Shown: positions 45,410 to 64,000 of the stretch, piece by piece
Layout of the letters: each line of letters begins with the position of its first letter
Position numbering within the stretch: position 1 is the stretch's first letter
NCBI GenBank assembly: GCA_021815785.1
Contig: JAKAZS010000002.1
Location: 248 to 64,247 of the forward strand
Source of the DNA: a bacterium
GTDB lineage: Bacteria; Cyanobacteriota; Vampirovibrionia; Obscuribacterales; JAKAZS01
Length of the DNA: 64,000 bases
Direction of reading: 5' to 3'
The notes under the pieces: generated by a model
Seen by the model: the letters and a program-made list of their open reading frames with translations, nothing else
Databases searched by the model: none
Told to the model about the DNA's origin: nothing
Translations under genes and position numbers: made by a program

Positions 45410-46681
45410 TTAGTTATTGGGGCTTTGAGTAATATTATCAGCAATTTCATTATTTTCATTGCAATCTAAATCATCAGGATTAAGCGTTCCATGAATCGGT
45501 TGATTTTTGGATGCACATAATTCATAAGGCATAGTATACGCTGTGGGCTTTTGTTCTACCGGAGCATTTTTAGGCGGGGCTTTTTTCTTTGGTTTTTTAT
45601 CTTCTTCTTCTTCTTCTTCCAATTGCTGGCGTAACTGCTGAAGAACACCATTAAGAGCTGGTTTAGCAAAAGAAAACCGAAAACCATAATATAATCTAAA
45701 GTCCATTCCGGATAAACCCACTACATCATTTGAATGCATATTATAGACCGGTTCAGCCCGAAAAAAAGCTAATAGCCCTGGAACAGCTTTAAAAATTTGT
45801 CGATCAATTTCAAAATCACAGATAAAGGAATAGTTGTTAGTCGGCAATAAGGCATTCACGCCAAACTGATTACGAAAATTCTGAACAAAAGTGCAGGTAT
45901 TAATAAACATCCAGCGACCACGTCGATAAATTGACCCAAACGTATAAAATGGATCAATTTCTCGATTGACACTATTCATAAACTGTTTACCCCGAAATTG
46001 GGTTAACACACTAACATAGGTTAAAAGGGCTGGCGTAAAATTATGATAATAGCTAACGCTCGGAATATAGTCAAAAACCGGATGAATGTTAGTTTCCCAT
46101 AATTCACGCATAAAAAAGCCTGTTTGAATATAACCTTTTTTATTTATATACTTCGTATTTTGGATACCACCGCCAGCAGAAAAAATATTGGTATCTAAAC
46201 TGTAATTTTTAATTAAGGTATCACGAATCATAAAGGCTGAGCTATATAATCTGGTGTTGGGAGTTAAAGCCCAGCCTACGGTAAAGTTAGGAAAAACCCG
46301 ATTAACATTATCAAAACTATTAACCGAAGCCAACCCCTTATTGGCAGCCGCCTTTTGCAATGGGGTCATTTTGGCATAAACCGCTGGGGACGGGTAATCA
46401 TGCCTTAAATATTCATATTTATTAGGCGTTTGATAAGGATTAGTCTCAATACGCATCGTTGATTCAACATAACCATTAAAATAAAGCCGCGCTGGCAATT
46501 TCTGCCATAAGCGAAATTGAAAATTCTGACCAAACAGTTGTTTGTCAGTGTTAGAAACAATAGGTGCTGAATCTGTTTTTAAAATAGTACTTTGTGCTAG
46601 ACAAGGACTGCCTAGCACAAAAATACTATATATTGTTAATATAAGTTGTAATAAATTTAATTGCTTCAATTTAATACACAA
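45410..46681 (-). CDS. Putative outer-membrane beta-barrel protein with charged C-terminal extension
   Basis: Signal 'LILTIYSIFVLGSPCLAQ', with alternating aromatic/hydrophobic strands ending in 'DFRLYYGFRFSF'. An 85 aa Glu/Lys/Pro-rich tail follows. The fold call is an inference. Confidence 0.45.
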   Translation of the reverse strand: MCIKLKQLNLLQLILTIYSIFVLGSPCLAQSTILKTDSAPIVSNTDKQLFGQNFQFRLWQKLPARLYFNGYVESTMRIETNPYQTPNKYEYLRHDYPSPAVYAKMTPLQKAAANKGLASVNSFDNVNRVFPNFTVGWALTPNTRLYSSAFMIRDTLIKNYSLDTNIFSAGGGIQNTKYINKKGYIQTGFFMRELWETNIHPVFDYIPSVSYYHNFTPALLTYVSVLTQFRGKQFMNSVNREIDPFYTFGSIYRRGRWMFINTCTFVQNFRNQFGVNALLPTNNYSFICDFEIDRQIFKAVPGLLAFFRAEPVYNMHSNDVVGLSGMDFRLYYGFRFSFAKPALNGVLQQLRQQLEEEEEEDKKPKKKAPPKNAPVEQKPTAYTMPYELCASKNQPIHGTLNPDDLDCNENNEIADNITQSPNN

Positions 46682-46688
46682 TTTTCAA

Positions 46689-47285
46689 TTATTTACTAGC
46701 TTCTCTTTTACCAGAGCTTGGCTTACTGTCAGCCAGTTCTTGATTTGGAGCTAAAATCTTGATAATTGGTTTGGTTATATCAACACCATCATCTAATACT
46801 TTTTGACCACCGGTAAAAATACCCGATCCATCAACCACTAAATCCAAGCCTTTTTCTTTAGCTACTTGAGTTGCAGCTTGCATAATTTTGGATGTAGCCA
46901 TTTGATTGGACGATTGAATTAATTGAGCTAAAGCTTGTTGCTTAGCACTTACTTCAGTTTGCAGGGTCTTTTGCATTTCTTGAATTTCGGATTCAGGTTT
47001 CTTGTCATCTTTAGCTTTTTGTAGTCTTTTATTAGCATCTTCAATATAGGCTTTTAATTGACTTTCGGCTTGACCTTTTAACGCTTCTGTTTCAGCAGCT
47101 TCAGGGCATACCATTTTCACTAAGGGAAGGCTAAAATAACCAACTTTGGCTTGAAATGGCTTAGCTGATTCATTAGCAGCTTGAGCTACAGATGAATTAC
47201 TGGCTGTAATTATAACTGAAAGAGCAACCATTGATAATACATTTTTGGTAATCATATTTAAATTAACTTTCATTTTTTTCCTCAT
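46689..47285 (-). CDS. skp: OmpH/Skp-family periplasmic chaperone
   Basis: Signal peptide, long Lys/Gln/Glu-rich helical arms, and the C-terminal 'AKEKGLDLVVDGSGIFTGG...VDITKPIIKIL' pattern typical of Skp. Confidence 0.65.
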   Translation of the reverse strand: MRKKMKVNLNMITKNVLSMVALSVIITASNSSVAQAANESAKPFQAKVGYFSLPLVKMVCPEAAETEALKGQAESQLKAYIEDANKRLQKAKDDKKPESEIQEMQKTLQTEVSAKQQALAQLIQSSNQMATSKIMQAATQVAKEKGLDLVVDGSGIFTGGQKVLDDGVDITKPIIKILAPNQELADSKPSSGKREASK

Positions 47286-47558: not shown

Positions 47559-47586
47559 TTGACTCATTAACTACTTCGTCTATAAT
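47559..47586 (+). promoter_or_regulatory. Candidate sigma-70 promoter for the giant gene (TTGACT-16 nt-TATAAT)
   Basis: Read directly: TTGACT at 47559-47564 and TATAAT at 47581-47586. AT-rich genomes produce such matches by chance. Confidence 0.4.
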
Positions 47587-47651: not shown

Positions 47652-47682
47652 AACTTCTTTCGCCAAAGAAGTTAGCTTTTTT
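47652..47682 (+). terminator. Terminator-like hairpin in the 5' leader (9-bp stem, 4-nt loop, then AGC + T6)
   Basis: aacttcttt-cgcc-aaagaagtt at 47652-47673, followed by agctttttt (T-run 47677-47682). It sits 4 nt before the GGAG (47686-47689) and 18 nt before the ATG at 47700. Confidence 0.35.
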
Positions 47683-47699: not shown

Positions 47700-50600
47700 A
47701 TGTTTATAAATGCTGTCAATACTTTCAGTAAACTAATATTTACAGCTAAAACCAGGCCAAGACTTATTAGCCATCAAAAAGTTTTGAATATTATTATGAC
47801 ATTCACATTTGGGCTTACTGCGCTATTAATGCCACAGTCAGCCTTAGCTCAAAGTGTTAATGCTAACGCCATTACCCATGCAACGTATCAGCATCAACTG
47901 GCTAATGAAGCAACTCTTGTGCAATCTGCCAGTCAGACGCATATAACAAACGATCTAAACGCGATTTTACACAATGTGGTCAATAACAGCCTGGATTTAT
48001 CCTCAATCATTCACGATATATCAGCTTATTCAATAACAGGTTTTCACAATGTATCCATAACCCAGGGTGGACTTCATGATATTATAACCAATAACGCTGT
48101 TTTAACTCCGGCTGAGACTGTTGCTGTTATGCAGGTATTAAATCATAACAGTCAAAATTTAATTTTAAATACTAATGGCCAGGCCATTGGCGGTTACTTT
48201 AATCTAAGTACAGCTAACAGCAATTTAGGCGGATCAGTTTTAATTCCTAATAATGTAACAGCCATTGATAAAGCTAACAGTTTAAGTATTAATGGCGACT
48301 TAGCCAATTATGGAAACATCTATATAATCGGTAATGAAAAATCAGCGCTAATCGAAACGGCTGGAATTTACAACGCTCAATCCGGGTTAATTACGTCTAA
48401 TAATTTAAACTTAAATTTGGGTTCAGCAACTGGTTTTGTCCATGACACCAATGTTAATTTATTAAGTAATTCTAATTTTATTAACCAAGGTAATATTTCC
48501 AGTTCCGGTAATTTAAATATCCAGGCTCAAGGCGATATGATTAATAGCAATATTGTAACGAATACAACCAACGCTAATCTAACTGCCAATGACAATTTAA
48601 GCCTGGCAACAGGATCTGGCTATTTATATAATGACGGCATTATTAATGCAATTACGGGCAATATAAATATAAGTTCATCAGCTGATTTAAATTTAACTAA
48701 TATAAATGGAACCATTGGAGCTAATAATGGTTCCATTTATATTAATGACAGTAGTTTAAATAATATCAACAATATTTACTTAAATTTTGGCAATTATGCG
48801 GCTAGTGACATAAATATAAATGCGGTTAACAGTAACGTTTATGCTAATTATGTTAATTTAAATGGCGTCTTAAATATTAACGCCAATCAGTCCCATATAA
48901 TGGCTAATTCTAACAATTTATTAATTGGTAATCAAAATATCAATGGTGATCCTACCTATTTTAACCAAGGTAATATAACTATTACAGGAGCTATTGCAAC
49001 TAGTGGAAACCCCTTGGCCATTATTGCTAGCGGTAATATTTCAAGCAACAGTGGATCTTCAATAAGTACAGCATCATCAACAGGCAATGGTGGTAATATT
49101 TTACTAGTGGCTGGGGCTAATTTTATTCCAACTACTGGTGGGACAAGTGGTAGTACAAGTGGAACTGGAGATACCACGACTACGATCACTATTCAAGGTG
49201 GAAGTAATAGCGGTGGGGTAATTGATTTAAATGGTGGTAATGGAGGCTCTGGAGCCTTAACCGCTTTGACAACAGTTAGTACCAGTACAACAGCTGGCAG
49301 CCAAAGTGGTGGCAATATTGAAATGATTGCATTTGGTGGCAACAATCCCTTTGCAACTGTTACCGGCAGTGCAAGTCTACCAGGAACGGTAAACTTGCCT
49401 AATAGCATAACCATTGAAGCTGGTGGGGCTGGTTCTGGAAGTAATGGAAATTTAACTATTATGGCCGGAGCCTACGGTGGCACCTCGATCAATGGAACCA
49501 GCACCAATTTTACTTCAACTGGAGGTACTGGCGGTAATGGCTCAATCAATTTATATACGCAAGCTCCTGTCTTGAGTAGCAATAATTTTATTTCAGTATT
49601 AAATGGCGCTGTAACTGCTGGCAGTTTTATACCAGGACTAACTAATAATGCCTCAATTAGTTTTGGCAATATTACCACTTCGACTACCAGCGATGTTATA
49701 ATGGCTGGAAACAATGTAACTGTTGGTACAATCAGTAATTTAAATACGGTCAGTTCAAATTCAGACAGTGTTACAATTAATGCGGCTAATGGAACGTTAA
49801 CTCTTACCGGCAATGGGTCAGGATCAGTGGCCGTTGATGTTTCTGGAGCAGCATCAGTTAGTAGCGCTGGAGCAATGACTTTATCGGCACAAAAGATTGT
49901 CATGAATGCTTCTTCAACTGGCGTCATTATTTTGAACGCTAACGGTAATGGCAATAATCAAGCAGCGGGTTCGATAACGCTTAATCTATATGGCAATAAT
50001 CCTGTAAATATTGGGACTAGTAGTGGTGATTTAAGCTTAAGTGCAACTGGTTCAGCACTTGGTACTAGTTCATTTTACGATGGCGTAATTAGTATCAATG
50101 CTTATAATAGTATAAATGTCACCTCATCATCAGCTTTAAGCGTTGGAGCAAGCACTGGCGCTAGTAATTCAGCCGGTGGCAGTGTAAGCATAAATGCTGG
50201 CGTCAATAACCCTGGATTTGGTAATGTATTTATTAGCGGAGGCTTAAGTGTTAATGGCTTAAATTCTGGTCAAGGCGGCTTAGTTAATCTAAGTGAAAAT
50301 TCAAGTACAGCGTTTGTTATTGGTAGTAGCGCTACCAATAATGGCATAACCGGACTTTTAAGTGCTAATAGTGGTTTAACTACCGGCACTAATGCCGGTT
50401 CAATAAGTGTTATTAACAATGGCAGTGGGGGAATTAATTTATCTAGCTTAGCTAATATTAGCCTTACCACTTTTAATAATGGCGGCAGTTTAACTTTAAA
50501 TGCTAATGGCGGTGATTTAACACTACCGGCTGGAACGATAAATGTTGATGGAGTTGGAAGTAATAGTAATGGTGGCAATTTAGCCTTAATTGGCCAGAAT

Positions 50601-53600
50601 ATTAATTATGGTACAACTGCTGGGCTCAGTCTAACGGCTAACGCTACTGGCACAGGTAATGGTGGGAATATAACCGTAGATTCTTTAGCTTCTAACAGTA
50701 CTTTAAACATTGGACCCAGTGTTAACGATATTACGCTATCAGCCACGGGCGGTAGTTCTAGTTCGGCTTCGGGTAACGGCGGCAGTATCAATATTGGCAC
50801 AGCTGGAATATTAAATATTGCTAATGGATCAGTCAGTCTTGGTCCACTTGGGACAAATGGTAATGGTGGCAATTTAACTATTAATCAAACCGATTATTCA
50901 ATTGCTAACAATTTAACTATGACCGGAACTCTTAATCTTAATGGAATTGGTACCGGTAATGGCGGTAACTTTACCCTGTTAACTTCAAGTACCGAAACCG
51001 TAACCCTGCCTGGCACAATTAGCGCAAACGCAGGACTTACTGGAATAAATGCGGGAATTATAAATATTACCGATAATGGTTATGGTGGCAGTATTAATTT
51101 CAGCTCAGCATTAGCAATTTCAGCCAATGCCGTTGCCGGTGGTGGTGCTAGTAATGGTTTTAATAATTTAAACAACATATCGGTTATTGCTCCAAATACC
51201 ATTGTTAATTTCAATGGTGGAAGTATAAACTCTAATACATCAATTGGTGGTGGTTCAATAAATCTAAGTGCTGATAATATAATTAATTCTGGTTCAGCCA
51301 TTACTTTAAGCGCCAATTCCACAAATGGTAATGGTGGATATATTACAATGGCTACCACTAGTGGATTAGGGAATATAACTGTTGGCAGTGCTACTGGTAA
51401 TTTTCAGTTTAACGCAACCGGTGGAGGAACAACATCCGGTAGTGGTGGAACAGTATCTATTGATGCTGGGGGGAATTTAAATGTAGATGCTAATTATTTA
51501 AATGTCATTCCATCAGCTACTGCTACAGCTGGCAATGGTGGAAATATTACGCTAGCTACCGGAATTGCCAATAGTATTTCTGGCGGATCGCTTACAATTA
51601 CTGACAGTGCTACATCCGGAACAATTGGCTTAAATGCTAACGCAACTGGTACCGGTAATGGTGGAAGTATAAACATTACCGTTAATGACGCCCAAAATTA
51701 TATTAATAGCAACTTTGATAAACTGTTTACCCTAAATGTTAATACTAATATTTACGCCAATGGCGGAAGCTTGGGTGGCAATGGGGGCACTATCAACATT
51801 AACAATACTTACGATAGCAGTATCAACTTTGCTAATTCAGTTACCGTTAATGCCAATTCTCCTAATGGTAATGGTGGAGCAATTAATATTCAGTCAAGTC
51901 AATTCTCGCCACAAAACGCCGGTTCATTAGTCTTTGCCGGATCCAACACCCTAAGCGCTACTGGCGGCAGTAATGCTTTTACCAGTGGTGGGCAAATTAA
52001 TCTAGTAGCCAGCAACATAGTTAATAATGATTTAGTTAATCCATTAAATTTAAACGTTAGTGTAACAGGAAACTCGGCAACCGGTGGCAGTATTAATTTA
52101 AATACCTATGGTTCGCTTACAGTGGGCTCAAGTGGTGGTGATATTGCAATTAATGCCAGTACTGGTAATGTAAATGATACAGCCGGAACTGAAACCAGAC
52201 CCAATATTACGCTTACGGTTAATAATAATTTAGATCTTACGAGTGCTACATCAGCCTTTAATATTGCTGGCCTTGGAAATAATGTAAGCGGTGGTAACGT
52301 ATCTTTAACTCAAAACAATTCATCTAATGGACTGTTGTCCATAAATCAGGCTATTAATCTTAATAGTGCTGGCTCTGGTTATAGCCCAGGTAATATATCG
52401 TTATATGCCAATAATTTAATGACTATTAATAGTAACCTATCCGCTAGCTCACCAGCAAACACTACTAGCACTGTCGCTGGATCAATTACCATTAAAGACA
52501 ATAGTACAGCAAATTTAAATCTACAAAACGGTCTCATTTTTGATGTAAGTAATTTAAATTCTACTTCACAAGGTTCAGCTGGCAGTATTACTCTAACGGC
52601 CAATAACATAACTTATACCGGAACAAGTACCGCACCAGCCTTAAGCTTAAATGCTAACAGTGTAATTGGTTACGGTGGACAAATCTATTTAAATTCAAAT
52701 CAAGGTAATATTGCTATTGGCACCGGCAGTAATGACATAACCGCAAATATTTCCGGGTCTAATAATGCCCAAAATGGATCTTTATACCTAAACGCCTCTC
52801 AAGAAACCGTTAATATTGATCCTGCCGGCATTATTTCTAACCCTAACAGCAATTCTGGCGGTGTGGCCATTACCCTAAGTGGTTCAGGAAACACTTTAAA
52901 TATTGCCAGTTCAACTAATACTCCTTTAGCTGTGTCGGGAAATTACGGCTTTATCAGCCTTAACGTTACCGGTCAAATTAATATAGATGCCCCTTTAACC
53001 GCTAATAGTGCTTCAGGCAATGGTTCTAGCTCTATCACAATTAATGACCAACTGTCAGCTAATGCTTTATCTGGAATAAATTTTGGTGCCAATGCTAGCC
53101 TGCAAGCCACATCTACAACTTATGCCGGAACAATAAGTGTCAGCGCTCCCACAATCAATATATTGTCAGCACCTTTAATCATGAATGTAAACACAACAGG
53201 TAGTGGTTATGCTGGTGGAACCATTAAAATCAGTACATCTCAAGCTAATAGTAATTTAACCATTGGCAGTAGTACTGGTGATATTGAAATTAAGGCGCAA
53301 ACCGGATCTTCTACTGATAATTCACTAGAATTAGCTTCAACGGTTAATGTAACTGCTGGGGGTAATTTAACCGTCAATTCAAACTCTTTACTAGCTAATG
53401 GATTAGGCTCAAATGCCAATGGTGCAAATATAATTTTAGCTTCAGGTCACGTTTATCGTGGTGTTAGTGGATATCTTAGTTTACCTGGCAACATGAATAT
53501 TGGTAATACTTTGATTAATGGCGTTCTAAATGTAAGTGGCATTGGTTCAGGGAATGGGGGCAGTCTAAGTATTTATTCAGATTCAACGTCTGCGTTTACG

Positions 53601-56600
53601 ATTGGAACAAGTACCGGGATCAGTAATGGAGTAACTAACACGATAACAGCCAATTCAGGAAACACCAGTACCAGTGGCGGTAGTATTTATATCGCTAACT
53701 ATGGCAATGGTGGAATTACTGATAATAATTTAAGTGATATTGCTGTTGCCACAACTACTAACTCATCAGGAAGTATAAGTCTTAATGCCTTTATGGGTAA
53801 TTTAAATATGGTAACAACATCTACTAATGCTACACTAGCTTCTTCAAGTGGATCTAGCTCTAATGGTGGGGCAATAACTTTAATTGGCAATAATATTAAT
53901 GTGACCGGGTCCAATCCCTTAATTATAAGTTCGCAAGCTTTAGGTAATGGTGCTACTGGAGCCACAATAAAATTAGGAACAATAACGCCATCGGCCAATA
54001 TTACGATTGGTAATACAACTGGAACAACTAATGATATGGAAATTAATGCCAGTGTTGGTAATTCCGGTGATGTATCTACCGAAACCGGAGCCAATGTAAC
54101 TATTTCAGCTAGCGGCAATTTAACCATTAATCCCACCTATTTAAATACCCAAACAGTAGGTACCTTTGCTAATGGTTCTACGTTAAATCTTACGGCTGGA
54201 GCCAGTGAAAATACGGGCAATTTATTAATTAATGGCAATTTAAGTGTTAATAGCGGTAGCAGCACTGGTAATGGTGGAACGCTTAATTTAACGTCCAATA
54301 GCCTAATTCCTTTCGAAGTATCGCCATCATCTATCAGTACTAATGCGGTTATCGGCACCTTATCAGCTACCGGAATTGGTACAGGCGGAACGATATCAAT
54401 AACTAATAATGGGGGTAATATTTCCATTCCAGCTCTAACCAATCTTAGCTTAAGTCCAGGGAGCAATTTAAATCTTGCTGCTGCTGATAACATTATAAGT
54501 ATAGCTAGTGGGATTTTAAATCTATCTGGAACAGCCTCAAGTATTAATGGTGGCAATGTTAATATTTATGCTGGTACAATAGCTGTTACAGGATCTTCAG
54601 CTTTAACAATAAATACCACTGGTTATAATTCGGCTGGAACTAGTACTGGTGGTAATGTAGTCATTAATTTAACTAACACATTAAGTGGTTTAACCATCGG
54701 TAATAATGCGGGAAATGTGAGTATTAATACTACCGGTATTGATGCTGGAAATATAACCTTAACTACCGGCGGTAATTTAAATATAGATCAAGCTTATTTA
54801 CTAGCTTCAACTACAGCTACAGGAGTCTTTAATGGTAATGCTGGTAATATAGCTATTACGGCTGGAACTAATGGCAGTGGCAATTTAACCATCGCAGATG
54901 CCGGTAATCAGGCTATTAATCTAGCCGGTAATGCTGGTGGCAATGGCGGTAATTTTAGCGTAACGGCTCCAGGACTAATAACTTTACCAAGTAGCATTAC
55001 AGTATCCAGCGGGACAACGAGTGGCAATACTGGTCAGTTAGAAGTAATTGGCGGAAATGGTATTGCTTTTCCCTCAACAACTGCTATAACTTTATCAGCT
55101 AATGGTAGTTATCCTTTAAGTGGAAATACCAATATAATTATACTTTATGCAGGATCTGGCAATTTAAATCTAGACAATGGTGGAACTATATCGGCTCAGA
55201 ATTTAACAGCCAACGGGTTTAATATTTCGCCTAATTTATTTAATGTAAGTATTATTGCCCAGAACATTATTAATCCTAATAAATTATTAATCATTGATAC
55301 CAATGGAACAAGTACAGCTGTGGGCGCAAATGTAAACCTCGAATCACTTGCGTCAGGAGCTAATTTAATCATAGGCTCCGGTAATGGTGATATTGCCATT
55401 AATAACAGTGGCGCCAATAATAGTACCTCTTATTCTTCAATAACCAATATAATTTCGGCCGGCAGCTTAACGGTAAATACCACTAATTTAAATACAGTTA
55501 CAATTGACGCAACAGTTGGCTCAGCCTTTAGTAATGGAGCTAGCGTTACCTTAACCAGTGGAACTTTAAATAGCGGAAGTGGTATGATCATAAACGGTAA
55601 TTTAAATGTTAACGGTTTAAGCACAGGTAATGGTGGTATCATCAGCATTGCCAATTATAGTAATGCTGATATAAATATTAACGGGAATTTGTCAGCCAAT
55701 GCTAATTATGGTTCTGGAGTGGGACCAGGTGGTAATGGCGGCAGTATTACAGTTACCAATTATGGCAATGGCAATGTAAATTTCACGAATACAACATCAC
55801 AAGCTATAAATGCCGATTCTCCTTATGGTAATGCTGGGAACATAAACATTACAGCAAAACAAGGAAATGTAACTTTTGCTGCAAATACGCTAATTTCAGC
55901 TAATACTGGCAATTATAGTGATAAAGGCGTTCAAACCGGAAATGGCGGAAACATAACTATAGCTGGTAATGATTTAACCACCGCAAATGGCAATCTAGCT
56001 TTAGTTGCCAATGCAAATTCTGGCCAGGCAGGTTCAATCAGCATAAATACCTATGCTTCAACCAGTAATCTTACTGTTGGAAATGCATCGGGGAACATAG
56101 AGATTTCAGCTAACGGTGGAACAAATAATGCATATGGTGGCAGCAGTGAAACGGTTTCGGCTGGGGGAAATTTAACAGTTAATCCAGCTCAATTAATGCT
56201 TAGCAACTATAATAGTTTAAACTCCTCAGGTAGTGGTTTAAATGTAACTTTAGCCAGTGGTAATAACGGTATTAACCCTGGCAATTTATTAATCAATGGT
56301 TCATTAAATTTAAATAGTATTTCTGGTTCTGGAGATTCACTTACTTTAACCTCAAATAGCACAACAGCCTTTACTATTGGCGGAACCGGTTTAACCACCA
56401 ATGAAATTAGTGGATCAATTAATCTAGGCTATTTTGGCAGTTCTACTGGAGCTGCTGGCAGCTTAACAGTCAATAACTTTGGTACTGGTGGTATTACCTT
56501 AGCCAGCTTAAATAATTTAAACTTCACAAGCTCCAATCAGGCTGGCAGTTTAACATTGAATGCCTCTAATGGAAATATAACTTTGCCTGGTGGCAACTTA

Positions 56601-59600
56601 AATTTAACGGGCAATAATATAATTATTTCAGGATCAACTAATTCCGGAACTGGTGGCAGCGTTTCGTTGACTGGGCAAGCAATAAATGTAACAGGATCAA
56701 CAGCTTTAACTTTAAATGTTAGTAATTCAGGCAATAACAGTCAGGTCTATTACACATCAAACATAAATATAAACATTGATGGTTATGGGAATTCTTTAAC
56801 TATTGGCAATGCAGCCAATGATATTGCCATAATCGCCAATACTGGATCGAGTTACCAAACGCTACTTAATCCAAATTTAACGACTTCAGCCAATACATCA
56901 TCCGTAAATATTAACTTATTTGACTATTATGGCAATTTAAGCTTAAACGGCAATGGTTTAAGCAACACAATCGATTCCTTGAGCCAAGCTGTTAACACTA
57001 CCTATACTGACTTAAATGTTAATTATAACAACCAAAGCTCAGCGACAACAGCTAACAGCTATTTAGGCGGTAATTTAACTATTTCTGGACCAATTATAAC
57101 TTATGGTGGCAATATAAATATTAATGCCTACACTGATACTAGTGTCAATTCTTCTCCATTAACTATCACTGGCTTATTACAGGCAAATGGTTATGAATCA
57201 GCGCAAATTAACATTAATAACTATGGCAATTCTGGCATAACGCTTAACAGTGCTACCATTAATGACACAAGTTATAAATATTCAAATCCCCTAATAAACA
57301 TTAATGCCAATTATACAGACTCATCATCAGCCATTACTTTCAATAATTCAATTTTAAATGTAAACTCATACTCTGGCGTTGGCTACGAACCAAGTTTTAA
57401 TAACGGTAATGAAGTAAGCCTAGCGGCTGGCAACATTATTATAACTAATGGGGCTAATTCTTCAATATTAGCTAATGGTCTTGGCGTTGAACCAGGTCAA
57501 AGCATATCTATCGTAACTCAATCCGGCAATTTAAATATTGGCACAGGTAATGGACAGCTGTCTTTATCAGCTACAGGTGGATCAGTTAATAGTATTTTCT
57601 CCAATGGTGGTTCAATTAGCATTCAGGATCTAACCGGAAATATCACTTTAGCTCCCAGTGGCATTACGGCAAGTAGTCTAGCGCAAAATGGCAATGGTGC
57701 CGCCTATAATCTTCAGGCCGGCGTAAATACCAAAAGCAATAACAATTATCAAGGTCTTCAGGCTAACTTAATAATTTCAGGATCTCTAAGCGCTAATGGT
57801 AATGGTATTGGTAATGGTGGTTCTATAAAATTAGATTCAACCTCAACAAATTCATTTACCACCGGCTTAACAGCTACCCCAATCAATGGGATTGAAGGAA
57901 GTATATCTGTTAATGCCGGACTTAATGGCGGAAATGCCGGTAGTATTGTCATTAATAATTATGGCAGTGGTGGTATAACCATTACCAATACTACTGATTT
58001 AATAGCTTCAGCAGCTTTAGGAAATCAAGGCAGTATTACCTTAACGGCTAATTACAATTACTATAGTGCTGCAGTTACCTTTGTCAACTCTGGCACAATT
58101 AATTTGAGCGCACCATCAGGCAGTAATGGTAATGGCGGTAATTTAACCATAAATGCTAACAGTATTAACTTAAACAGTCCTGGTTTAACGGTGAACTTAA
58201 ATGGTAATGGCAGTGGTAGTGGCGGTAGCTTTACATTCTTCTCTAGCGGTGGTTTGTTTAACAATGGGTTATTGACCGTGAATGCTAACGGCGGGGTAAC
58301 TGGCGATGGTGGTGATATTTACATATACCAAAACGGTCAAAATTACGAAAATTTAATCGTTGGTTCAGCCAGTGGCGATATTAATATCAGTGCTAACGGT
58401 GGATCAACATCGGGTAATGCTGGTAGCGTAAATTTATATAATAATTTAACCTACTCTAGCCCAGCTCAATCAATAGCTATAAATCCCAGTAATTTAAGTT
58501 TAACAGCAATATCTGGCAATGGTGGCTCGTTATCCATAAATGCTAGCAATATTCTGATTACAGGTGGCTTAAACTTAAATGGCGCTGGCACGGGTAATGG
58601 TGGCAATCTAACTATAACTCAAACCAGCAACACTTCATTCTCGGTTGATGGTGGAGCTGGAATTGCTAACGGGATTCAAGGTAATGTAACGGCTAATGGA
58701 GGTAGTACCAGTGGTAATGCAGGTATTATTACCTTTAATTTAAGTAATTCAGCTGGATTAAACCTTGCTTCAGCTACAGCTATCCAGGCCAGTTCAAGCA
58801 ATGGTAATGGTGGAAACATCTCCTTAACTAATGTTAATGGTACTATAACTATTCCAACTGGAACTATTAACTTAAATGGTACAGGCTCATCTGGTAACGG
58901 TGGATATTTATATATAAGCAGTGCTGATCTGAACGTTACTGGACCCAGTGGGACTTTAAACGTTAATGCTAATGGTGCTGGTAATGGCAATGGTGGTAAT
59001 GTGGTAATTAATCTTACCGATCCGTTAAATAGCTCACTAACTGTTGGCTCAAACAACGATAATTTAGCCATTTCAGCAAATGGAGGCAGTTCAGGTAATA
59101 ACAAAGTTAATGCTGGCTCTGTATCGCTTACAGCAACTAATATAACAGTAGCAATGTCATCATTAAGCCTAGCAACACTTTCAACAAATGGCAATGGTGG
59201 TAGCTTAACTTTAAGCAATACCATATCCAATATTGGAGCGATAAATTTAACCGGTAATATCAACCTAGCAGGTACTGGCAATGGCAATGGTGGTAATTTC
59301 ACCATAGATGACAGTAGCACGTCAGCTTTTAATGCGCCAACGAAAATCAACGTGGATTCAGGACTAGCTGGTGGCAAGGGTGGAGTTATTAGCCTGAACC
59401 AATATGGCTCTGGTGGTATTAATTTTGCTTCAGCTGTAAATATTACGGCCGATTCAATTAATGCAAATGCTGGTAACATAACCATTAATTCAATTGAATC
59501 TAATGGATTTGCCCAAACTATCGTTTACAGCCCCATAACTTTTACCGGTGGTGGAACAATTTCAGCCAGTGCTACCTTAGGTAGCAGTATTAGTGGTAAT

Positions 59601-62600
59601 GGCGGTAATATTGACGTCTATGGTTATGATTTAACGATAACTGGTTCGACCCTAACCTTAAATGCTAATGCAAGCTCAAACAATGGTAATGGTGGTTTAA
59701 TGAATATTGTGGCTAACGATCCAACAACTGCTGGAGCTGTTACTATTGGTAGTGTAGCTGGCGATCTGGTTATTTCAGCTACTGGTGGTAATGCAGGGAA
59801 CCAAGCCATGGGTAATAACATCACTAATGGAGGAAGTGTTAATATATCATCAGCTAATAATGTTACGATTAATCCAGGATCATTAAGCCTAAACGGAACC
59901 GGCACAGGTGGCTTTTTATTTGCCTCCGCTGGAGTACAGGCTCTATCCAGTAACAGCTACCAATTCACTTCTGGCAATGTGTTAATAACGGGAAGCCTAA
60001 ATTTTTCGGGCTATGCCTTTAATTATGGCGGAACAATTAATATTCAATCTCGTTCCGCCACAGCTTTTAATCTTGGTGGCAGTATTTTAACTAACGGTCT
60101 TGAGGGAAATATAAATGTAACAGGTGGAACCGGTGGAACTGTTAATTTAACTAATTATGGATCCGGTGGTCTGGTTATCAATCCAAGTGATTTAAGCATT
60201 AATGGTACATACAGTAGCGGTGGATTCCTTGGTTTATATGGATATACTCCCAACGTATACAATCCTCTTGGGGGTGGTTCATCAAGCCCACGACCAGCTG
60301 GTGGTTTTGAAGGAGCAGTTACCATAACTAATGGCACGCTTAATGACAGTGGTTATAACAATGTCTATTTATCAGCTCAATATTCAACTACACCTGGCAG
60401 TATAACTATTGACGGCAGTTATCTTAATTTAAGTGGCAGTGGCATCAATCCCTTAACAATTATGGCTAATGGTGCGATCCAGGCTAATGGCACCAGTATA
60501 AATATCAATTTAAATGGAGCTGGTAGCAATTTAACTATCGGCAACAGTTTAGGGGATTTGTCCATTGTCGATAACGGTGGAACTTACATTAATAGTTCTG
60601 CTGGTACTGCTGGCAATGTCAGTATAAGTACTGGTGGCAGTTTAACTGTAAACACTACCAATCTTCAACTTAATAGCACAACTGTACCAATAGCTAATTT
60701 AACATATACATCGATTCCAGCTGGGTCACTAACTTTATCAGCTGGTAATAATGGTAATGGCAACTTACTAATTAATGGATCGTTAAATATAAATTCATTT
60801 CAAACTATTGCTAATACATATTACAACGCTTTAACAGGTGGAACAATTAATTTAACGAGTAATAGCAACAGCCCATTTGTTGTTGCCAATACAGCTACAA
60901 TTAATGGCATAACCGGCAGTATTAATGTGAATGGTCTCGGTGGGAGTGCAAGTGCTGGATCTATTACCATTACCAATAATGGCAATGGTGGCATTGATGT
61001 TACTAATCCTTCTTACATTATGGCAAGTGGCTATAACGGTGGCTTCGTAACCCTGGGCGGTATTCCCAATAACAGCTATACTTCTACACCAAATTACTAT
61101 GGCGTATATGGACCAATTATTAATAATAAGCCAACTGGTCCAGTCACTATTGCCAGTGGAACCCTTAATGTAAGCAGTAATGATTATGGACAGAATTACT
61201 TTTTAAACAATATTACAGCACCAATTTATGGTATTGAAAACGGTGGCAATGTAAATATTCTAGCTACTAATTTAAACATAACTGGTAGCAGTAATTTAAA
61301 TATATTAGCTAACGGTGGTGGTTTTGGCAATGGGGGAACAATTAGTATCACCTCAACAGCTCGAGGTGATAATTTGAATATTGGATCAGCAGTCAATGAT
61401 CTTAATTTATCGGCTACAGCTGGCAGCCCTGGACTCGACAATTCGGCGTCGTCAAGTATTACAGCCGGCAGTATTAATATTTATGCTGGCAGCAATATTA
61501 TTGTAAATTCAGCCAATTTAAATGTTGCTAATAATTTAACATCAACATCAACAAATACTTCGCAAATTAACGGTGGTAGTATAGGACTATATGCCGGCTT
61601 TGTTCCTCAAGTACATACCAGTTATAATGATGTCAACGTTTATAATGGCAATCTAATTATTACGGGTAATCTTAATGTTAATGGAGCTTACGAGGGTAGC
61701 GGCGGGAATTTAAATTTATACTGGAATTCGGCCAATGTATTTCAGTTAGATTCAGCTACTACTCCTAATAATGGTACAACTGGAATTTTAACAGCTAATT
61801 CCGAATATGGTTCAAGCAGCGTAAACAGTTTCAGGAGTAATGGTGGTAGTATTACCCTGGTTAATATGACTAATTTCAACTATGGTGGAATCAATATTGC
61901 TAATGCAAATGATTTATCAGCTATAGCTTCTGACGGCAATGGTGGCAATATTACAATCGATAATAACTATCAAGGCGGAAATATAACTATCGGCAGTGGT
62001 ATATTATCAGTTAACGCAACTAGTTCACCTAGTACAAACTATTATGGTGGCAATATCGTTATTGGTGGACAAAGTTCAACTAGACAGATGTCCTATCAAA
62101 ATATCAATATAAATGGAATCTTAAGCCTAACCGCTAACAGTTCAAACAATAATGCAATTGCTGGCTCCATTTCGCTGACTGGATACAATATAAATGTAAA
62201 TTCAGTTACAGGAAGCTTATTTTTAAGTGCTTTGGGCCAAGTGATTAGCTCAAATGTTAACACTATTAATATTGAAGCTGCCAGTCCAAATGCCAGTTTA
62301 AATATTGGGACAGGATTTGATAATATATCCGTAGCGGTCACGCCAAACCAATTCTCAACAAACGGACATTACGTATTTTCACCAAACATAAGTATACTTT
62401 CCGGTGGCAATTTAACCGTTAATCCAGCTGGCATAATATTAGCCAACTATAATAACCAAAACACAATTAATTTAACTCTAGCAGCTGGTGCCCCAATATT
62501 TAGCAATGACGCTTCAGTTGGACTAGGTAACTTGGTTATAACCGGAAATTTAAATTATGGAGCCGGATCCAACATTTACCTTATCAGTAATTCCAATAAT

Positions 62601-64000
62601 CCATTTGACATTGGTTCTTCAACTTTACCTTATAATGGCATCGAAGGCAGTATTACCGGAAGCTCACCAATAATTGGTGGTAATGGTGGCAGTGTTTATG
62701 TAACGAATCTAGGTATTGGCGGAATAACACTAAACTCAGACACAAATATTAATGTAGCAAGTTACGGTGGTAATGGTGGCACTGTAGAATTAGGCTATGT
62801 TCGCGACATAATTCCTTTTTATAGTAATCTCGATATTGATACTACTAATGGTCAGCTAACTTTGCCAGGTGGTAATATTAATACTAGTGGAACGGGCTTT
62901 AATTCAAACAATGGTCAGATAATTTTGGCTGGCAGTAATATAAACACTTCTAATACTGCCAATTTAGAATTAGTTAATAATGGCTATACGACAAATAATA
63001 ATTTAACGTCTGGTGCCTATAATGTTCAAATAATTGATAACAGTTCAACTGGTACTTTTAACATTGGAACTAGTTCTGGTCAAATCAGTATTCAGGCAAA
63101 TTTAAATGAAACTAATAATGGATCAGCAAGTTCCAGTAATTCTATCGAAATATCTACGCAAAACAACTTAACAGTTGATCCAAGCGCAATTCAACTTGTC
63201 ATTTCGGGAACTAATGCTAATCAAGCTGCGTTATCCTTATATTCAGCCAAAAATTTACTTATCACTCATCCGCTTAATTTAACTGGATTGGGCAATGGTC
63301 TTGGTGGAGCAGTTACTTTATTATCTAATAGCTCAAGTCCCTTTACCGTAGGGGGATCTTCATTAATCAACGGTATTCAAGGATCAATTAATGTTAGCGG
63401 AGGAAATAGTGGAGCTGCTGGTTCAATTTATATAGCTAATTATGGCAGTGGTGGCATGGTTGTAAACAATCCTTCAACAAATCTAATACTAACTACCAAT
63501 AATGGTAATGGAGGAATTTTAACTTTAGAAACCCAAAATTATTCCAGTTCAAACCAAACTCAGTCGCTAGCCAGTTTAACTATTAATACGGGAAGTAGTG
63601 GTGATAGTTTAAACGTTAATGGCAGTTATGGTAACGGCGGAACCATAAATATTAATACAGCCAGTTTAATTGTAAGTGGCGGTCCCTTAACCATAAATGC
63701 TATAGGAGGCAGTAACTCAGGCATTAATTCTTATGTAACCGGTGGTACCATAAATATCCTATCCAGTTTAGCGACTTCCAACCTTACCATTGGTAATGGG
63801 AATGGTAGCCTTGAACTAAACACTAACAGTCCAACTTATGCAAATGCCAATGGTGGCACAGTTGTTGTAATCGCCGGCGAAAATCTTAGTGTAAATAGCA
63901 GTTTTTTATATATTAACCCTGGAGCTAATAGTGGAAATGGGGGCAACATTATATTATTTGCTGGCGCTAGTGGTTACGGCAATCTAACAGTTAACGGCAA
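47700..64000 (+). CDS. Giant secreted repeat protein (beta-solenoid/adhesin-like), 5' part only, continues beyond the window
   Basis: ATG at 47700, with an in-frame TGA at 47682 and a GGAG Shine-Dalgarno upstream. I translated by hand continuously to ~51000 and spot-checked to 64000 without meeting a stop. There is a long signal leader ending 'LLMPQSALA|QSV', followed by Gly/Asn/Ser/Thr-rich repeats with recurring GNGG(N/S/T) boxes. It is absent from the ORF track, presumably because no stop lies inside the window. Confidence 0.9.
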   Translation, partial: MFINAVNTFSKLIFTAKTRPRLISHQKVLNIIMTFTFGLTALLMPQSALAQSVNANAITHATYQHQLANEATLVQSASQTHITNDLNAILHNVVNNSLDLSSIIHDISAYSITGFHNVSITQGGLHDIITNNAVLTPAETVAVMQVLNHNSQNLILNTNGQAIGGYFNLSTANSNLGGSVLIPNNVTAIDKANSLSINGDLANYGNIYIIGNEKSALIETAGIYNAQSGLITSNNLNLNLGSATGFVHDTNVNLLSNSNFINQGNISSSGNLNIQAQGDMINSNIVTNTTNANLTANDNLSLATGSGYLYNDGIINAITGNINISSSADLNLTNINGTIGANNGSIYINDSSLNNINNIYLNFGNYAASDININAVNSNVYANYVNLNGVLNINANQSHIMANSNNLLIGNQNINGDPTYFNQGNITITGAIATSGNPLAIIASGNISSNSGSSISTASSTGNGGNILLVAGANFIPTTGGTSGSTSGTGDTTTTITIQGGSNSGGVIDLNGGNGGSGALTALTTVSTSTTAGSQSGGNIEMIAFGGNNPFATVTGSASLPGTVNLPNSITIEAGGAGSGSNGNLTIMAGAYGGTSINGTSTNFTSTGGTGGNGSINLYTQAPVLSSNNFISVLNGAVTAGSFIPGLTNNASISFGNITTSTTSDVIMAGNNVTVGTISNLNTVSSNSDSVTINAANGTLTLTGNGSGSVAVDVSGAASVSSAGAMTLSAQKIVMNASSTGVIILNANGNGNNQAAGSITLNLYGNNPVNIGTSSGDLSLSATGSALGTSSFYDGVISINAYNSINVTSSSALSVGASTGASNSAGGSVSINAGVNNPGFGNVFISGGLSVNGLNSGQGGLVNLSENSSTAFVIGSSATNNGITGLLSANSGLTTGTNAGSISVINNGSGGINLSSLANISLTTFNNGGSLTLNANGGDLTLPAGTINVDGVGSNSNGGNLALIGQNINYGTTAGLSLTANATGTGNGGNITVDSLASNSTLNIGPSVNDITLSATGGSSSSASGNGGSINIGTAGILNIANGSVSLGPLGTNGNGGNLTINQTDYSIANNLTMTGTLNLNGIGTGNGGNFTLLTSSTETVTLPGTISANAGLTGINAGIINITDNGYGGSINFSSALAISANAVAGGGASNGFNNLNNISVIAPNTIVNFNGGSINSNTSIGGGSINLSADNIINSGSAITLSANSTNGNGGYITMATTSGLGNITVGSATGNFQFNATGGGTTSGSGGTVSIDAGGNLNVDANYLNVIPSATATAGNGGNITLATGIANSISGGSLTITDSATSGTIGLNANATGTGNGGSINITVNDAQNYINSNFDKLFTLNVNTNIYANGGSLGGNGGTININNTYDSSINFANSVTVNANSPNGNGGAINIQSSQFSPQNAGSLVFAGSNTLSATGGSNAFTSGGQINLVASNIVNNDLVNPLNLNVSVTGNSATGGSINLNTYGSLTVGSSGGDIAINASTGNVNDTAGTETRPNITLTVNNNLDLTSATSAFNIAGLGNNVSGGNVSLTQNNSSNGLLSINQAINLNSAGSGYSPGNISLYANNLMTINSNLSASSPANTTSTVAGSITIKDNSTANLNLQNGLIFDVSNLNSTSQGSAGSITLTANNITYTGTSTAPALSLNANSVIGYGGQIYLNSNQGNIAIGTGSNDITANISGSNNAQNGSLYLNASQETVNIDPAGIISNPNSNSGGVAITLSGSGNTLNIASSTNTPLAVSGNYGFISLNVTGQINIDAPLTANSASGNGSSSITINDQLSANALSGINFGANASLQATSTTYAGTISVSAPTINILSAPLIMNVNTTGSGYAGGTIKISTSQANSNLTIGSSTGDIEIKAQTGSSTDNSLELASTVNVTAGGNLTVNSNSLLANGLGSNANGANIILASGHVYRGVSGYLSLPGNMNIGNTLINGVLNVSGIGSGNGGSLSIYSDSTSAFTIGTSTGISNGVTNTITANSGNTSTSGGSIYIANYGNGGITDNNLSDIAVATTTNSSGSISLNAFMGNLNMVTTSTNATLASSSGSSSNGGAITLIGNNINVTGSNPLIISSQALGNGATGATIKLGTITPSANITIGNTTGTTNDMEINASVGNSGDVSTETGANVTISASGNLTINPTYLNTQTVGTFANGSTLNLTAGASENTGNLLINGNLSVNSGSSTGNGGTLNLTSNSLIPFEVSPSSISTNAVIGTLSATGIGTGGTISITNNGGNISIPALTNLSLSPGSNLNLAAADNIISIASGILNLSGTASSINGGNVNIYAGTIAVTGSSALTINTTGYNSAGTSTGGNVVINLTNTLSGLTIGNNAGNVSINTTGIDAGNITLTTGGNLNIDQAYLLASTTATGVFNGNAGNIAITAGTNGSGNLTIADAGNQAINLAGNAGGNGGNFSVTAPGLITLPSSITVSSGTTSGNTGQLEVIGGNGIAFPSTTAITLSANGSYPLSGNTNIIILYAGSGNLNLDNGGTISAQNLTANGFNISPNLFNVSIIAQNIINPNKLLIIDTNGTSTAVGANVNLESLASGANLIIGSGNGDIAINNSGANNSTSYSSITNIISAGSLTVNTTNLNTVTIDATVGSAFSNGASVTLTSGTLNSGSGMIINGNLNVNGLSTGNGGIISIANYSNADININGNLSANANYGSGVGPGGNGGSITVTNYGNGNVNFTNTTSQAINADSPYGNAGNINITAKQGNVTFAANTLISANTGNYSDKGVQTGNGGNITIAGNDLTTANGNLALVANANSGQAGSISINTYASTSNLTVGNASGNIEISANGGTNNAYGGSSETVSAGGNLTVNPAQLMLSNYNSLNSSGSGLNVTLASGNNGINPGNLLINGSLNLNSISGSGDSLTLTSNSTTAFTIGGTGLTTNEISGSINLGYFGSSTGAAGSLTVNNFGTGGITLASLNNLNFTSSNQAGSLTLNASNGNITLPGGNLNLTGNNIIISGSTNSGTGGSVSLTGQAINVTGSTALTLNVSNSGNNSQVYYTSNININIDGYGNSLTIGNAANDIAIIANTGSSYQTLLNPNLTTSANTSSVNINLFDYYGNLSLNGNGLSNTIDSLSQAVNTTYTDLNVNYNNQSSATTANSYLGGNLTISGPIITYGGNININAYTDTSVNSSPLTITGLLQANGYESAQININNYGNSGITLNSATINDTSYKYSNPLININANYTDSSSAITFNNSILNVNSYSGVGYEPSFNNGNEVSLAAGNIIITNGANSSILANGLGVEPGQSISIVTQSGNLNIGTGNGQLSLSATGGSVNSIFSNGGSISIQDLTGNITLAPSGITASSLAQNGNGAAYNLQAGVNTKSNNNYQGLQANLIISGSLSANGNGIGNGGSIKLDSTSTNSFTTGLTATPINGIEGSISVNAGLNGGNAGSIVINNYGSGGITITNTTDLIASAALGNQGSITLTANYNYYSAAVTFVNSGTINLSAPSGSNGNGGNLTINANSINLNSPGLTVNLNGNGSGSGGSFTFFSSGGLFNNGLLTVNANGGVTGDGGDIYIYQNGQNYENLIVGSASGDINISANGGSTSGNAGSVNLYNNLTYSSPAQSIAINPSNLSLTAISGNGGSLSINASNILITGGLNLNGAGTGNGGNLTITQTSNTSFSVDGGAGIANGIQGNVTANGGSTSGNAGIITFNLSNSAGLNLASATAIQASSSNGNGGNISLTNVNGTITIPTGTINLNGTGSSGNGGYLYISSADLNVTGPSGTLNVNANGAGNGNGGNVVINLTDPLNSSLTVGSNNDNLAISANGGSSGNNKVNAGSVSLTATNITVAMSSLSLATLSTNGNGGSLTLSNTISNIGAINLTGNINLAGTGNGNGGNFTIDDSSTSAFNAPTKINVDSGLAGGKGGVISLNQYGSGGINFASAVNITADSINANAGNITINSIESNGFAQTIVYSPITFTGGGTISASATLGSSISGNGGNIDVYGYDLTITGSTLTLNANASSNNGNGGLMNIVANDPTTAGAVTIGSVAGDLVISATGGNAGNQAMGNNITNGGSVNISSANNVTINPGSLSLNGTGTGGFLFASAGVQALSSNSYQFTSGNVLITGSLNFSGYAFNYGGTINIQSRSATAFNLGGSILTNGLEGNINVTGGTGGTVNLTNYGSGGLVINPSDLSINGTYSSGGFLGLYGYTPNVYNPLGGGSSSPRPAGGFEGAVTITNGTLNDSGYNNVYLSAQYSTTPGSITIDGSYLNLSGSGINPLTIMANGAIQANGTSININLNGAGSNLTIGNSLGDLSIVDNGGTYINSSAGTAGNVSISTGGSLTVNTTNLQLNSTTVPIANLTYTSIPAGSLTLSAGNNGNGNLLINGSLNINSFQTIANTYYNALTGGTINLTSNSNSPFVVANTATINGITGSINVNGLGGSASAGSITITNNGNGGIDVTNPSYIMASGYNGGFVTLGGIPNNSYTSTPNYYGVYGPIINNKPTGPVTIASGTLNVSSNDYGQNYFLNNITAPIYGIENGGNVNILATNLNITGSSNLNILANGGGFGNGGTISITSTARGDNLNIGSAVNDLNLSATAGSPGLDNSASSSITAGSINIYAGSNIIVNSANLNVANNLTSTSTNTSQINGGSIGLYAGFVPQVHTSYNDVNVYNGNLIITGNLNVNGAYEGSGGNLNLYWNSANVFQLDSATTPNNGTTGILTANSEYGSSSVNSFRSNGGSITLVNMTNFNYGGINIANANDLSAIASDGNGGNITIDNNYQGGNITIGSGILSVNATSSPSTNYYGGNIVIGGQSSTRQMSYQNININGILSLTANSSNNNAIAGSISLTGYNINVNSVTGSLFLSALGQVISSNVNTINIEAASPNASLNIGTGFDNISVAVTPNQFSTNGHYVFSPNISILSGGNLTVNPAGIILANYNNQNTINLTLAAGAPIFSNDASVGLGNLVITGNLNYGAGSNIYLISNSNNPFDIGSSTLPYNGIEGSITGSSPIIGGNGGSVYVTNLGIGGITLNSDTNINVASYGGNGGTVELGYVRDIIPFYSNLDIDTTNGQLTLPGGNINTSGTGFNSNNGQIILAGSNINTSNTANLELVNNGYTTNNNLTSGAYNVQIIDNSSTGTFNIGTSSGQISIQANLNETNNGSASSSNSIEISTQNNLTVDPSAIQLVISGTNANQAALSLYSAKNLLITHPLNLTGLGNGLGGAVTLLSNSSSPFTVGGSSLINGIQGSINVSGGNSGAAGSIYIANYGSGGMVVNNPSTNLILTTNNGNGGILTLETQNYSSSNQTQSLASLTINTGSSGDSLNVNGSYGNGGTININTASLIVSGGPLTINAIGGSNSGINSYVTGGTINILSSLATSNLTIGNGNGSLELNTNSPTYANANGGTVVVIAGENLSVNSSFLYINPGANSGNGGNIILFAGASGYGNLTVNG

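Follow-up and report, generated by a model that had tools for sequence, protein, structure and literature searches.

A giant open reading frame (ORF) of an Obscuribacterales bacterium encodes an old array of 20 contiguous modules, each built of seven differentiated coils and predicted with good confidence to fold as a beta-solenoid. The ORF lies at the end of a 64,000-nucleotide stretch of contig JAKAZS010000002.1 (assembly GCA_021815785.1), referred to below as the window. We favor, at slightly better than an even chance, the interpretation that it represents the N-terminal 60% of an exported protein of 8,998 residues whose chain forms a very long, rod-like surface fiber. Obscuribacterales and other Melainabacteria are non-photosynthetic relatives of the cyanobacteria that are known almost only from metagenomes, and to our knowledge their cell surfaces are uncharacterized.

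The giant ORF (47700..64000, + strand) begins with an ATG at 47700 that is preceded by a GGAG 11 nt upstream, and it is still open at the window end. Frame 3 of this strand is uninterrupted between a stop at 47682 and the window end, and 5,433 codons of the gene lie inside the window. A promoter-like site, TTGACT-16-TATAAT (47559..47586, + strand), lies ~115 nt upstream of the start codon and agrees with the consensus at 11 of 12 positions, a consensus match only. An exact-sequence look-up of the neighboring M1 peptidase led to GCA_027399115.1, an ENA contig, a second NCBI assembly and a Logan contig. In GCA_027399115.1 (contig DAHYZG010000020.1) the same gene is called with the same start at a length of 8,998 aa, of which the window holds the N-terminal ~60% (5,433 aa). 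As this NCBI locus is 99.98% identical to the window across 22,685 nt and carries the gene with the same start, we conclude that the ORF is real and reproducible across assemblies. The precomputed record of the 8,998-residue product lists no Pfam family, and the final 41 nt of the window, used as an exact DNA query, were not found in JGI metagenomes. The original prediction set the beginning of the repetitive region at 49080; the gene itself starts at 47700, and the segment 47700-49652 codes for a signal peptide and for a conserved N-terminal domain distinct from the modules.

The repeat had first been noticed as a recurring order of motif boxes anchored on 12 Phe codons. All 12 codons fall in frame 3 of the one ORF, all encode Phe and all share the context '..S..(A/P)F'; the seven spacings from 57855 onward are 783, 690, 738, 810, 864, 864 and 738 nt, exactly as claimed, and the proposed order of boxes is matched by the consensus of a 19-module alignment. 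The units before 57855 had been described as longer and interrupted, which did not hold up: when the seven modules at aa 3386-5214 alone were used to make a profile, it recovered every upstream module at E values of 1e-14 to 1e-42, and these are ordinary modules in which the anchor Phe has been substituted or lost, so that Phe gaps of 3282, 2058 and 1485 nt correspond to five, three and two such modules. After iteration, the profile covered aa 652-5433 without gaps, with ~20 modules of 218-289 aa plus one of 149 aa. The predicted periodicity of ~230-290 aa is thus borne out by self-comparison and is more regular than had been proposed.

The array occupies 49653..63998 on the + strand, as do all its members, and comprises 20 contiguous modules, the last of which is cut by the window end. 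Twelve modules retain the anchor Phe: module 2 (50307..50993; aa 870-1098, 229 aa; Phe at 50313), module 7 (53589..54302; aa 1964-2201, 238 aa; Phe at 53595), module 8 (54303..54965; aa 2202-2422, 221 aa; Phe at 54312), module 11 (56364..57128; aa 2889-3143, 255 aa; Phe at 56370), module 13 (57849..58631; aa 3384-3644, 261 aa; Phe at 57855), module 14 (58632..59321; aa 3645-3874, 230 aa; Phe at 58638), which is the one we modeled with AlphaFold2, module 15 (59322..60056; aa 3875-4119, 245 aa; Phe at 59328), module 16 (60057..60869; aa 4120-4390, 271 aa; Phe at 60066), module 17 (60870..61730; aa 4391-4677, 287 aa; Phe at 60876), module 18 (61731..62597; aa 4678-4966, 289 aa; Phe at 61740), which bears a large insertion, module 19 (62598..63335; aa 4967-5212, 246 aa; Phe at 62604) and the truncated module 20 (63336..63998; aa 5213-5433, 221 aa; Phe at 63342). 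The anchor Phe is absent from module 3 (50994..51686; aa 1099-1329, 231 aa), module 4 (51687..52412; aa 1330-1571, 242 aa), module 6 (52860..53588; aa 1721-1963, 243 aa), module 9 (54966..55664; aa 2423-2655, 233 aa) and module 10 (55665..56363; aa 2656-2888, 233 aa), and is replaced by Tyr in module 12 (57129..57848; aa 3144-3383, 240 aa). Two modules match only part of the profile, namely module 1 (49653..50306; aa 652-869, 218 aa; profile positions 21-224 only) and the short module 5 (52413..52859; aa 1572-1720, 149 aa; profile positions 30-179 only).

BLASTP searches of 300-aa pieces against the whole protein gave hundreds of off-diagonal matches, with nearest offsets of ~220-275 aa and identities reaching 30-40% over ~300 aa. 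Against the profile, the real sequence yielded 19-20 domains above 25 bits with a maximum of 254 bits, while the best domain score among 60 composition-preserving shuffles (global, 30-aa local and 10-aa local) and the reversed sequence was at most 9 bits. Protein identity between modules ranges from 24 to 44% in the 19-module alignment, and the DNA copies are well diverged, as had been claimed, the longest DNA repeat families spanning at most 60 nt at 60-85% identity. A matrix of module scores revealed that neighboring modules are not more alike than distant ones. Since DNA repeats are only motif-sized and proximity confers no added similarity, the array is old, and the original view of a protein-level repeat, as opposed to a recent duplication or an assembly stutter, is upheld by these two observations together with the 99.98%-identical independent assembly. 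The same matrix, with its lack of a neighbor effect, speaks against higher-order blocks generated by recent multi-module duplication. One pair, the modules at aa 870 and 3645, stands out as better matched than the rest; a co-linear match of ~500 aa at ~38-40% identity also occurs at an offset of 2,778 aa.

Closer inspection of single modules revealed a further level of organization. Within the module, the motif [G/A/S][G/A]-x-φ-x-φ is repeated at offsets of ~30, 60, 92, 122, 163, 190 and 222, with a modal spacing of 28-35 aa and a median of 29 aa, and parts of one module show weak profile-profile similarity to each other. On these grounds we describe the module as seven differentiated coils of ~30 aa, each marked by GNGG-x-φ-x-φ; GNGG itself occurs 37 times where 3 occurrences would be expected. 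Conserved positions in the 19-module alignment are almost exclusively Gly, Asn and Ile/Leu/Val, with a single invariant column, a Gly. The composition is correspondingly extreme, with Asn at 16.8%, Gly at 15.1%, Ser at 13.6% and Thr at 10.7% (56% together); Lys (0.4%), Arg (0.2%) and Glu (0.8%) sum to only 1.4%, and Trp and Cys are absent. The AlphaFold2 model of the module at aa 3645-3874 is all-beta, with a mean predicted local distance difference test (pLDDT) score of 89.2 and a predicted template modeling (TM) score of 0.89, and each ~30-aa unit opens with a Gly-rich loop and continues into two or three short strands in which aliphatic residues alternate. The short Gly- and Asn-punctuated strands of the original prediction therefore find support in the model, whereas the hierarchy of seven ~30-aa coils per module had been missed. 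Because the conserved positions are those of turns and core, selection would appear to act on the fold, which suggests that the modules serve as structural spacers and not as ligand-binding domains.

The region upstream of the array has a different character. As read from the sequence, residues 1-51 (47700..47852, + strand) form a long Sec-type signal peptide, with a basic n-region and the hydrophobic core VLNIIMTFTFGLTALLM, followed by ALA|QS, and homologues begin with similar signal peptides. Next comes a conserved N-terminal domain of ~560 aa (47988..49652, + strand; aa ~97-651) that bears the motifs LDLSS, LTPAE, GDPTY.N, LAIIASGNI and GGNILLVAGANF, its sharp motifs also including GGN..VAGANF. 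This domain shares 29-43% identity among 23 word-index matches and directly follows the signal peptide in at least 93 fetched relatives. Its model (pLDDT 80) is mostly beta and is predicted to be largely beta-solenoid.

When 1.84 billion cluster representatives were searched exhaustively with a profile, we obtained 2,992 related clusters at E <=1e-3, 754 at 1e-10 and 122 at 1e-30. The best relatives are themselves giants (2,000-7,400 aa) in which as many as 21 stretches match, and they share an architecture in which a signal peptide and the ~560-aa N-terminal domain are followed by 1-21 module stretches and a conserved C-terminal domain, often with thousands of residues of other repeats before the C-terminal end. 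This C-terminal domain, seen in the full-length relatives P0029, P0030, P0032, P0034, P0044 and others, spans ~200 aa, is present in one or two copies (often as a tandem pair) and carries the motifs '..GRR..', 'SEFS.VSL' and 'KTAACL..VT..HG.Y'; apart from a single weak match to FecR, Pfam and the PDB gave nothing for it, and we regard it as a candidate anchor or secretion signal. The window protein has the signal peptide, an N-terminal domain with GDPTY.N and LAIIASGNI and at least one ~230-aa module, and thereby belongs to the family; it stands out from its relatives by the highest module count observed, with 20 or more modules within 60% of its length compared with their 1-21 matched stretches. 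The only named top match is MBX9879478.1, a 7,404-aa 'hypothetical protein' of Candidatus Obscuribacterales; proteins of this type are true homologues that share the N-terminal domain and module, and they are uncharacterized and unnamed. Word-indexed homologue searches with modules gave only 5 and 9 matches, G/N/S-rich words likely saturating the list of 8,000 candidates.

We then scanned one genome per species with a 7-sequence alignment of the N-terminal domain and obtained 53 loci that encode it, up to five per genome and none above 42% identity. All 53 lie in metagenome-assembled genomes labeled Obscuribacterales, Obscuribacteraceae, Melainabacteria or 'Cyanobacteria bacterium', with a few unclassified 'bacterium' entries. 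Two low-GC relatives, L003 and L012 (Melainabacteria isolate clean1587, GC 0.33-0.34), resemble the window in base composition (GC 0.34). In some Melainabacteria genomes two giant genes stand side by side, in tandem or divergently (L002, L023 and L050), and the number of modules within the fetched stretch of Melainabacteria giants varies from 1 to 17. We found no paper on Obscuribacter or Melainabacteria that describes these giant proteins. The family is new and uncharacterized, a variant of the familiar giant beta-helical surface proteins of bacteria.

Comparison with known families gave no significant match. Pfam and NCBIfam searches with the 5,433 aa returned nothing except a chance 15-bit glucan-repeat match, and the N- and C-terminal pieces of homologues gave nothing beyond the weak C-terminal FecR match. 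Profile searches of the PDB with the module, the N-terminal domain, a 423-aa neighboring protein and the homologues' C-terminal domain found nothing significant. Foldseek searches of the PDB with the module model gave only non-significant matches (E >=0.59, TM <=0.29), and searches of the PDB and BFVD with the module and N-terminal models likewise produced no significant match, the lists for the module being full of beta-helix proteins at TM <0.35. Because no confident match to a well-described family emerged, the original observation stands.

Individual families were considered in turn. Proteins of the TpsA type carry an N-terminal two-partner secretion (TPS) domain with NPNL and NPNGI motifs and repeats of ~19-20 residues, and an Omp85-type TpsB is usually encoded adjacently. 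The giant resembles TpsA proteins (FhaB, HMW1, EtpA, HxuA) in its Sec signal peptide, in the predicted beta-helical domain directly behind it and in a predicted long, repetitive beta-helix shaft, but differs in lacking a TPS domain, filamentous hemagglutinin (FHA) repeats of 19-20 residues and a nearby TpsB, and in its ~30-aa coils grouped into seven-coil super-modules. The original prediction had remarked on the absence of TPS boxes and FHA repeats, and we can confirm this: there is no Pfam or NCBIfam match and no such box in the N-terminal domain. The FHA-type repeat families PF05594 and PF13332 and the Fil_haemagg families had no Pfam match, the coil period being ~30 aa. Classical autotransporters (type Va secretion) end in a 12-stranded beta-barrel translocator, and the beta-helical passengers of autotransporters and of chlamydial Pmp proteins are thought to fold vectorially outside the cell. 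Such passengers (pertactin, Ag43, Hap, IcsA) and Pmp proteins are beta-helical, as is predicted for the giant, and appear low in the Foldseek lists; the giant has no Pfam match to the autotransporter barrel (PF03797), pertactin or Chlam_PMP within the 5,433 aa, the C-terminus lying outside the window, and none in the full-length record. Pmp motifs occur at chance frequency (GGA[ILV] 3 times against 2.4 expected, F..N 13 times against 16.7 expected), and PF02415 had no match. Right-handed parallel beta-helices of the pectate-lyase-like clan have three-sided coils of ~22-25 aa, in contrast to the ~30-aa coil of the giant, which had no match to Pfam beta-helix families (PF13229, PF05048, PF12708 or similar), NosD or pectate lyase.

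Among other giant repetitive surface proteins, such as the RTX adhesins MpIBP and LapA, SwmB and the Omnitrophota giants, lengths of several thousand to more than ~10,000 aa, tandem structural repeats used as extenders and restriction to particular lineages are all shared features. RTX adhesins of the type I secretion system (T1SS) have GGxGxD nonapeptide repeats and a C-terminal secretion signal and lack a Sec signal peptide, whereas the giant has a Sec signal peptide in place of a C-terminal T1SS signal and no RTX nonapeptides, with 0 occurrences of GG.G.D and no PF00353 match in the 5,433 aa. The Omnitrophota giant proteins are described as having antiparallel beta-helix tubules and carbohydrate-binding-like regions and not the seven-coil module, and the paper in question does not mention Melainabacteria (bioRxiv 10.1101/2023.11.21.568195).

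The genes next to the giant offer two possible accessory factors. A 198-aa OmpH/Skp-like periplasmic chaperone (46689..47285, - strand; Pfam PF03938, E 2.5e-10) is encoded divergently from the giant, and beyond it lies a family-less 423-aa protein with a signal peptide (45410..46681, - strand), whose conserved core ends in the aromatic motif 'GFRFSF', with a charged tail behind it. This ending looks like that of an outer-membrane beta-barrel. The 423-aa protein had no Pfam, NCBIfam or PDB match, FomA porin reaching only E 0.096, and with its TTG start no record was found by look-up. Skp-like homologues adjoin giants in 4 related loci, and homologues of the 423-aa protein adjoin giants with the N-terminal domain in six related loci, twice in one of them (the loci with either recurrence being L005 (twice), L006, L034, L036, L039 and L041). 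When ORFs neighboring the 53 loci were clustered, recurrence was confined to TPR proteins (10 loci) and the 423-aa family (7 loci). The recurrence of the 423-aa family beside giants, at 7 of 54 loci, is suggestive but weak; it is possible that the Skp-like chaperone is an accessory factor of the giant and that the 423-aa protein is its outer-membrane partner. The 39 window ORFs of at least 150 aa are ordinary chromosomal genes, including a SUF operon, pyruvate kinase, RecD2, MurT, a GH57 branching enzyme and others, and Pfam found no Omp85, POTRA, ShlB, T1SS or other dedicated transporter among them.

Together, these observations are the basis for the surface-fiber interpretation that we favor. 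The giant would be exported by Sec via its N-terminal signal peptide, and the chain would most likely pass through the outer membrane in an unfolded state and fold vectorially on the cell exterior, a route to which its charge-free, Cys-free composition would be suited and may be linked. The only candidate helpers for outer-membrane passage would be the divergent Skp-like chaperone and the putative outer-membrane 423-aa protein. Once folded, the protein may form a surface fiber for attachment or an envelope fibril, with the N- and C-terminal domains acting as functional tip and cell anchor, or the reverse. Beta-helices rise by ~4.8 Å per coil, so we infer that one module would add ~3.4 nm and the 20 window modules ~65-70 nm, and the whole protein could exceed 100 nm in length. 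A role as an adhesin, proposed from sequence features, is putative and would follow from the architecture. Several points weigh against this interpretation. Localization and function are both predicted from architecture, and the sequence that was read ends 3,565 aa before the C-terminus. The input alignment for the AlphaFold2 module model consisted of paralogous modules only; among solved and viral structures nothing matched significantly (best E 0.2-0.6, TM <0.35), and the solenoid geometry rests on AlphaFold because PDB and BFVD hold no significant structural match. Lastly, no dedicated outer-membrane transporter is conserved beside the giants, and no family recurs in more than 10 of the 53 loci.

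Several alternative explanations were weighed against the surface fiber. That the same structure might instead be a component of the envelope or of motility, such as a fibrillar surface layer, a sheath or a giant repetitive surface protein for SwmB-like non-flagellar movement, and not an adhesin, strikes us as rather unlikely. It differs from the favored interpretation in function only. The several paralogues per genome, a module number that varies from 1 to at least 21, a charge-free Asn/Ser/Thr-rich surface and conservation limited to fold-determining positions would all be in keeping with it, and none of these features is peculiar to a binding role; however, the locus shows no link to motility genes, and SwmB-type proteins of marine Synechococcus are, as far as is known, exported without an N-terminal Sec signal. 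We consider it unlikely that the giant is a very divergent TpsA exoprotein of the FhaB, HMW1 or EtpA kind, whose degenerate TPS domain would be recognized by an Omp85-type TpsB from another part of the genome. TpsA proteins fill all the top places when the N-terminal model is compared by Foldseek (HxuA 4rm6, the HMW1 secretion domain 2odl and EtpA 8cpk/8vbb), one homologue is labeled 'adhesin HecA-like repeat protein' by JGI (P0020), and the layout of signal peptide, conserved N-terminal beta-helix and long repetitive beta-helix is the same. None of these structural matches reaches significance (E 0.2-0.55, probability <=0.35, TM <=0.32), and we treat the resemblance of the model as a lead, not a result. 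Moreover, neither the giant nor the N-termini of its homologues matched PF05860 (Haemagg_act), Fil_haemagg or TIGR01901 at E up to 1, NPNL occurs once in the 5,433 aa, at aa 3057 and far from the N-terminus, NPNG never occurs, and ShlB/POTRA proteins were found neither among the 39 window ORFs of at least 150 aa nor as a recurrent neighbor in the 53 loci.

A more specific proposal, which we judge distinctly improbable, would make the giant the passenger of an undescribed, Melainabacteria-specific pathway of outer-membrane export, in which the Skp-like chaperone would hand it to the 423-aa outer-membrane protein in a two-partner-type arrangement unrelated to Omp85/TpsB, with an N-terminal 'export' domain of its own and a seven-coil module that would constitute a new solenoid geometry and not a variation on known beta-helices. 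There is very little to recommend an enzymatic beta-helix or a protein that binds ice or carbohydrate, akin to pectate lyases or antifreeze-like solenoids: polygalacturonases, pectate lyases and ice-binding proteins do figure in the non-significant Foldseek lists, but the Pfam beta-helix, NosD and pectate-lyase families had no match, acidic and basic residues with the potential to form catalytic sites are almost absent and twenty repeated modules favor a structural over a catalytic role. The extremely biased composition, with Asn, Gly, Ser and Thr at 56%, could in principle have produced an artifact of a low-complexity frame, assembly stutter or compositional bias, to which we now assign virtually no weight. 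Local-composition shuffles gave no profile matches, the diverged DNA copies argue against stutter, the gene was recovered at 99.98% identity in independent NCBI, ENA and Logan assemblies and there are thousands of homologues; the shuffles, homologues and independent assemblies together refute this explanation.

Further features of the window were noted in passing. The giant gene (47700-64000) has a GC content of 0.379 and positive skew against 0.33 and negative skew in the rest of the window, a difference that stems from coding rich in Gly (GGN) and Asn/Ser/Thr. Two antisense ORFs (- strand) lie inside it, at 49472-49954 (160 aa) and 58676-59485 (269 aa), and similar antisense ORFs within related giants clustered together in the neighbor-ORF analysis; the most likely explanation is that they are shadow frames of the repetitive strand that codes for the giant. 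The segment 39848-42702 (+ strand) encodes first a 756-aa protein, which has a single transmembrane helix at its N-terminus, and then a 184-aa protein; at their N-termini the two show weak resemblance to the TadG and TadE pilus-assembly pseudopilins, respectively (Pfam E 2.9 and 0.048, below threshold), and one homologue of the 184-aa protein lies near a giant in L007. A 747-aa protein at 37248-39491 (- strand), with an apparently membrane-associated N-terminal third and no clear family, contains a weak PHP/CehA-McbA metallohydrolase-like region (NCBIfam E 7.7e-13, below cut-off). The segment 16483-20303 (- strand) holds a gene for an ECF-type sigma factor (17414-18061), with a 732-aa ORF on its upstream side and two overlapping ORFs of 158 aa on its downstream side; 0 of these 3 ORFs had a Pfam match. 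The segment may represent an uncharacterized sigma/anti-sigma module.

Bacteria are well known for giant surface proteins of the beta-helical type, and no concept is overturned by this family. As searches of Pfam, NCBIfam and the PDB do not detect it, its module, N-terminal and C-terminal domains provide three profile-ready domains for annotation, and given an 8,998-aa member and several paralogues per genome, the family accounts for a sizeable unannotated share of the coding capacity of Melainabacteria and Obscuribacterales. The seven differentiated coils per module also present a clean case for how very long solenoids avoid misregistration during folding. Collectively, these findings provide a concrete hypothesis on how Melainabacteria may attach to surfaces or prey.

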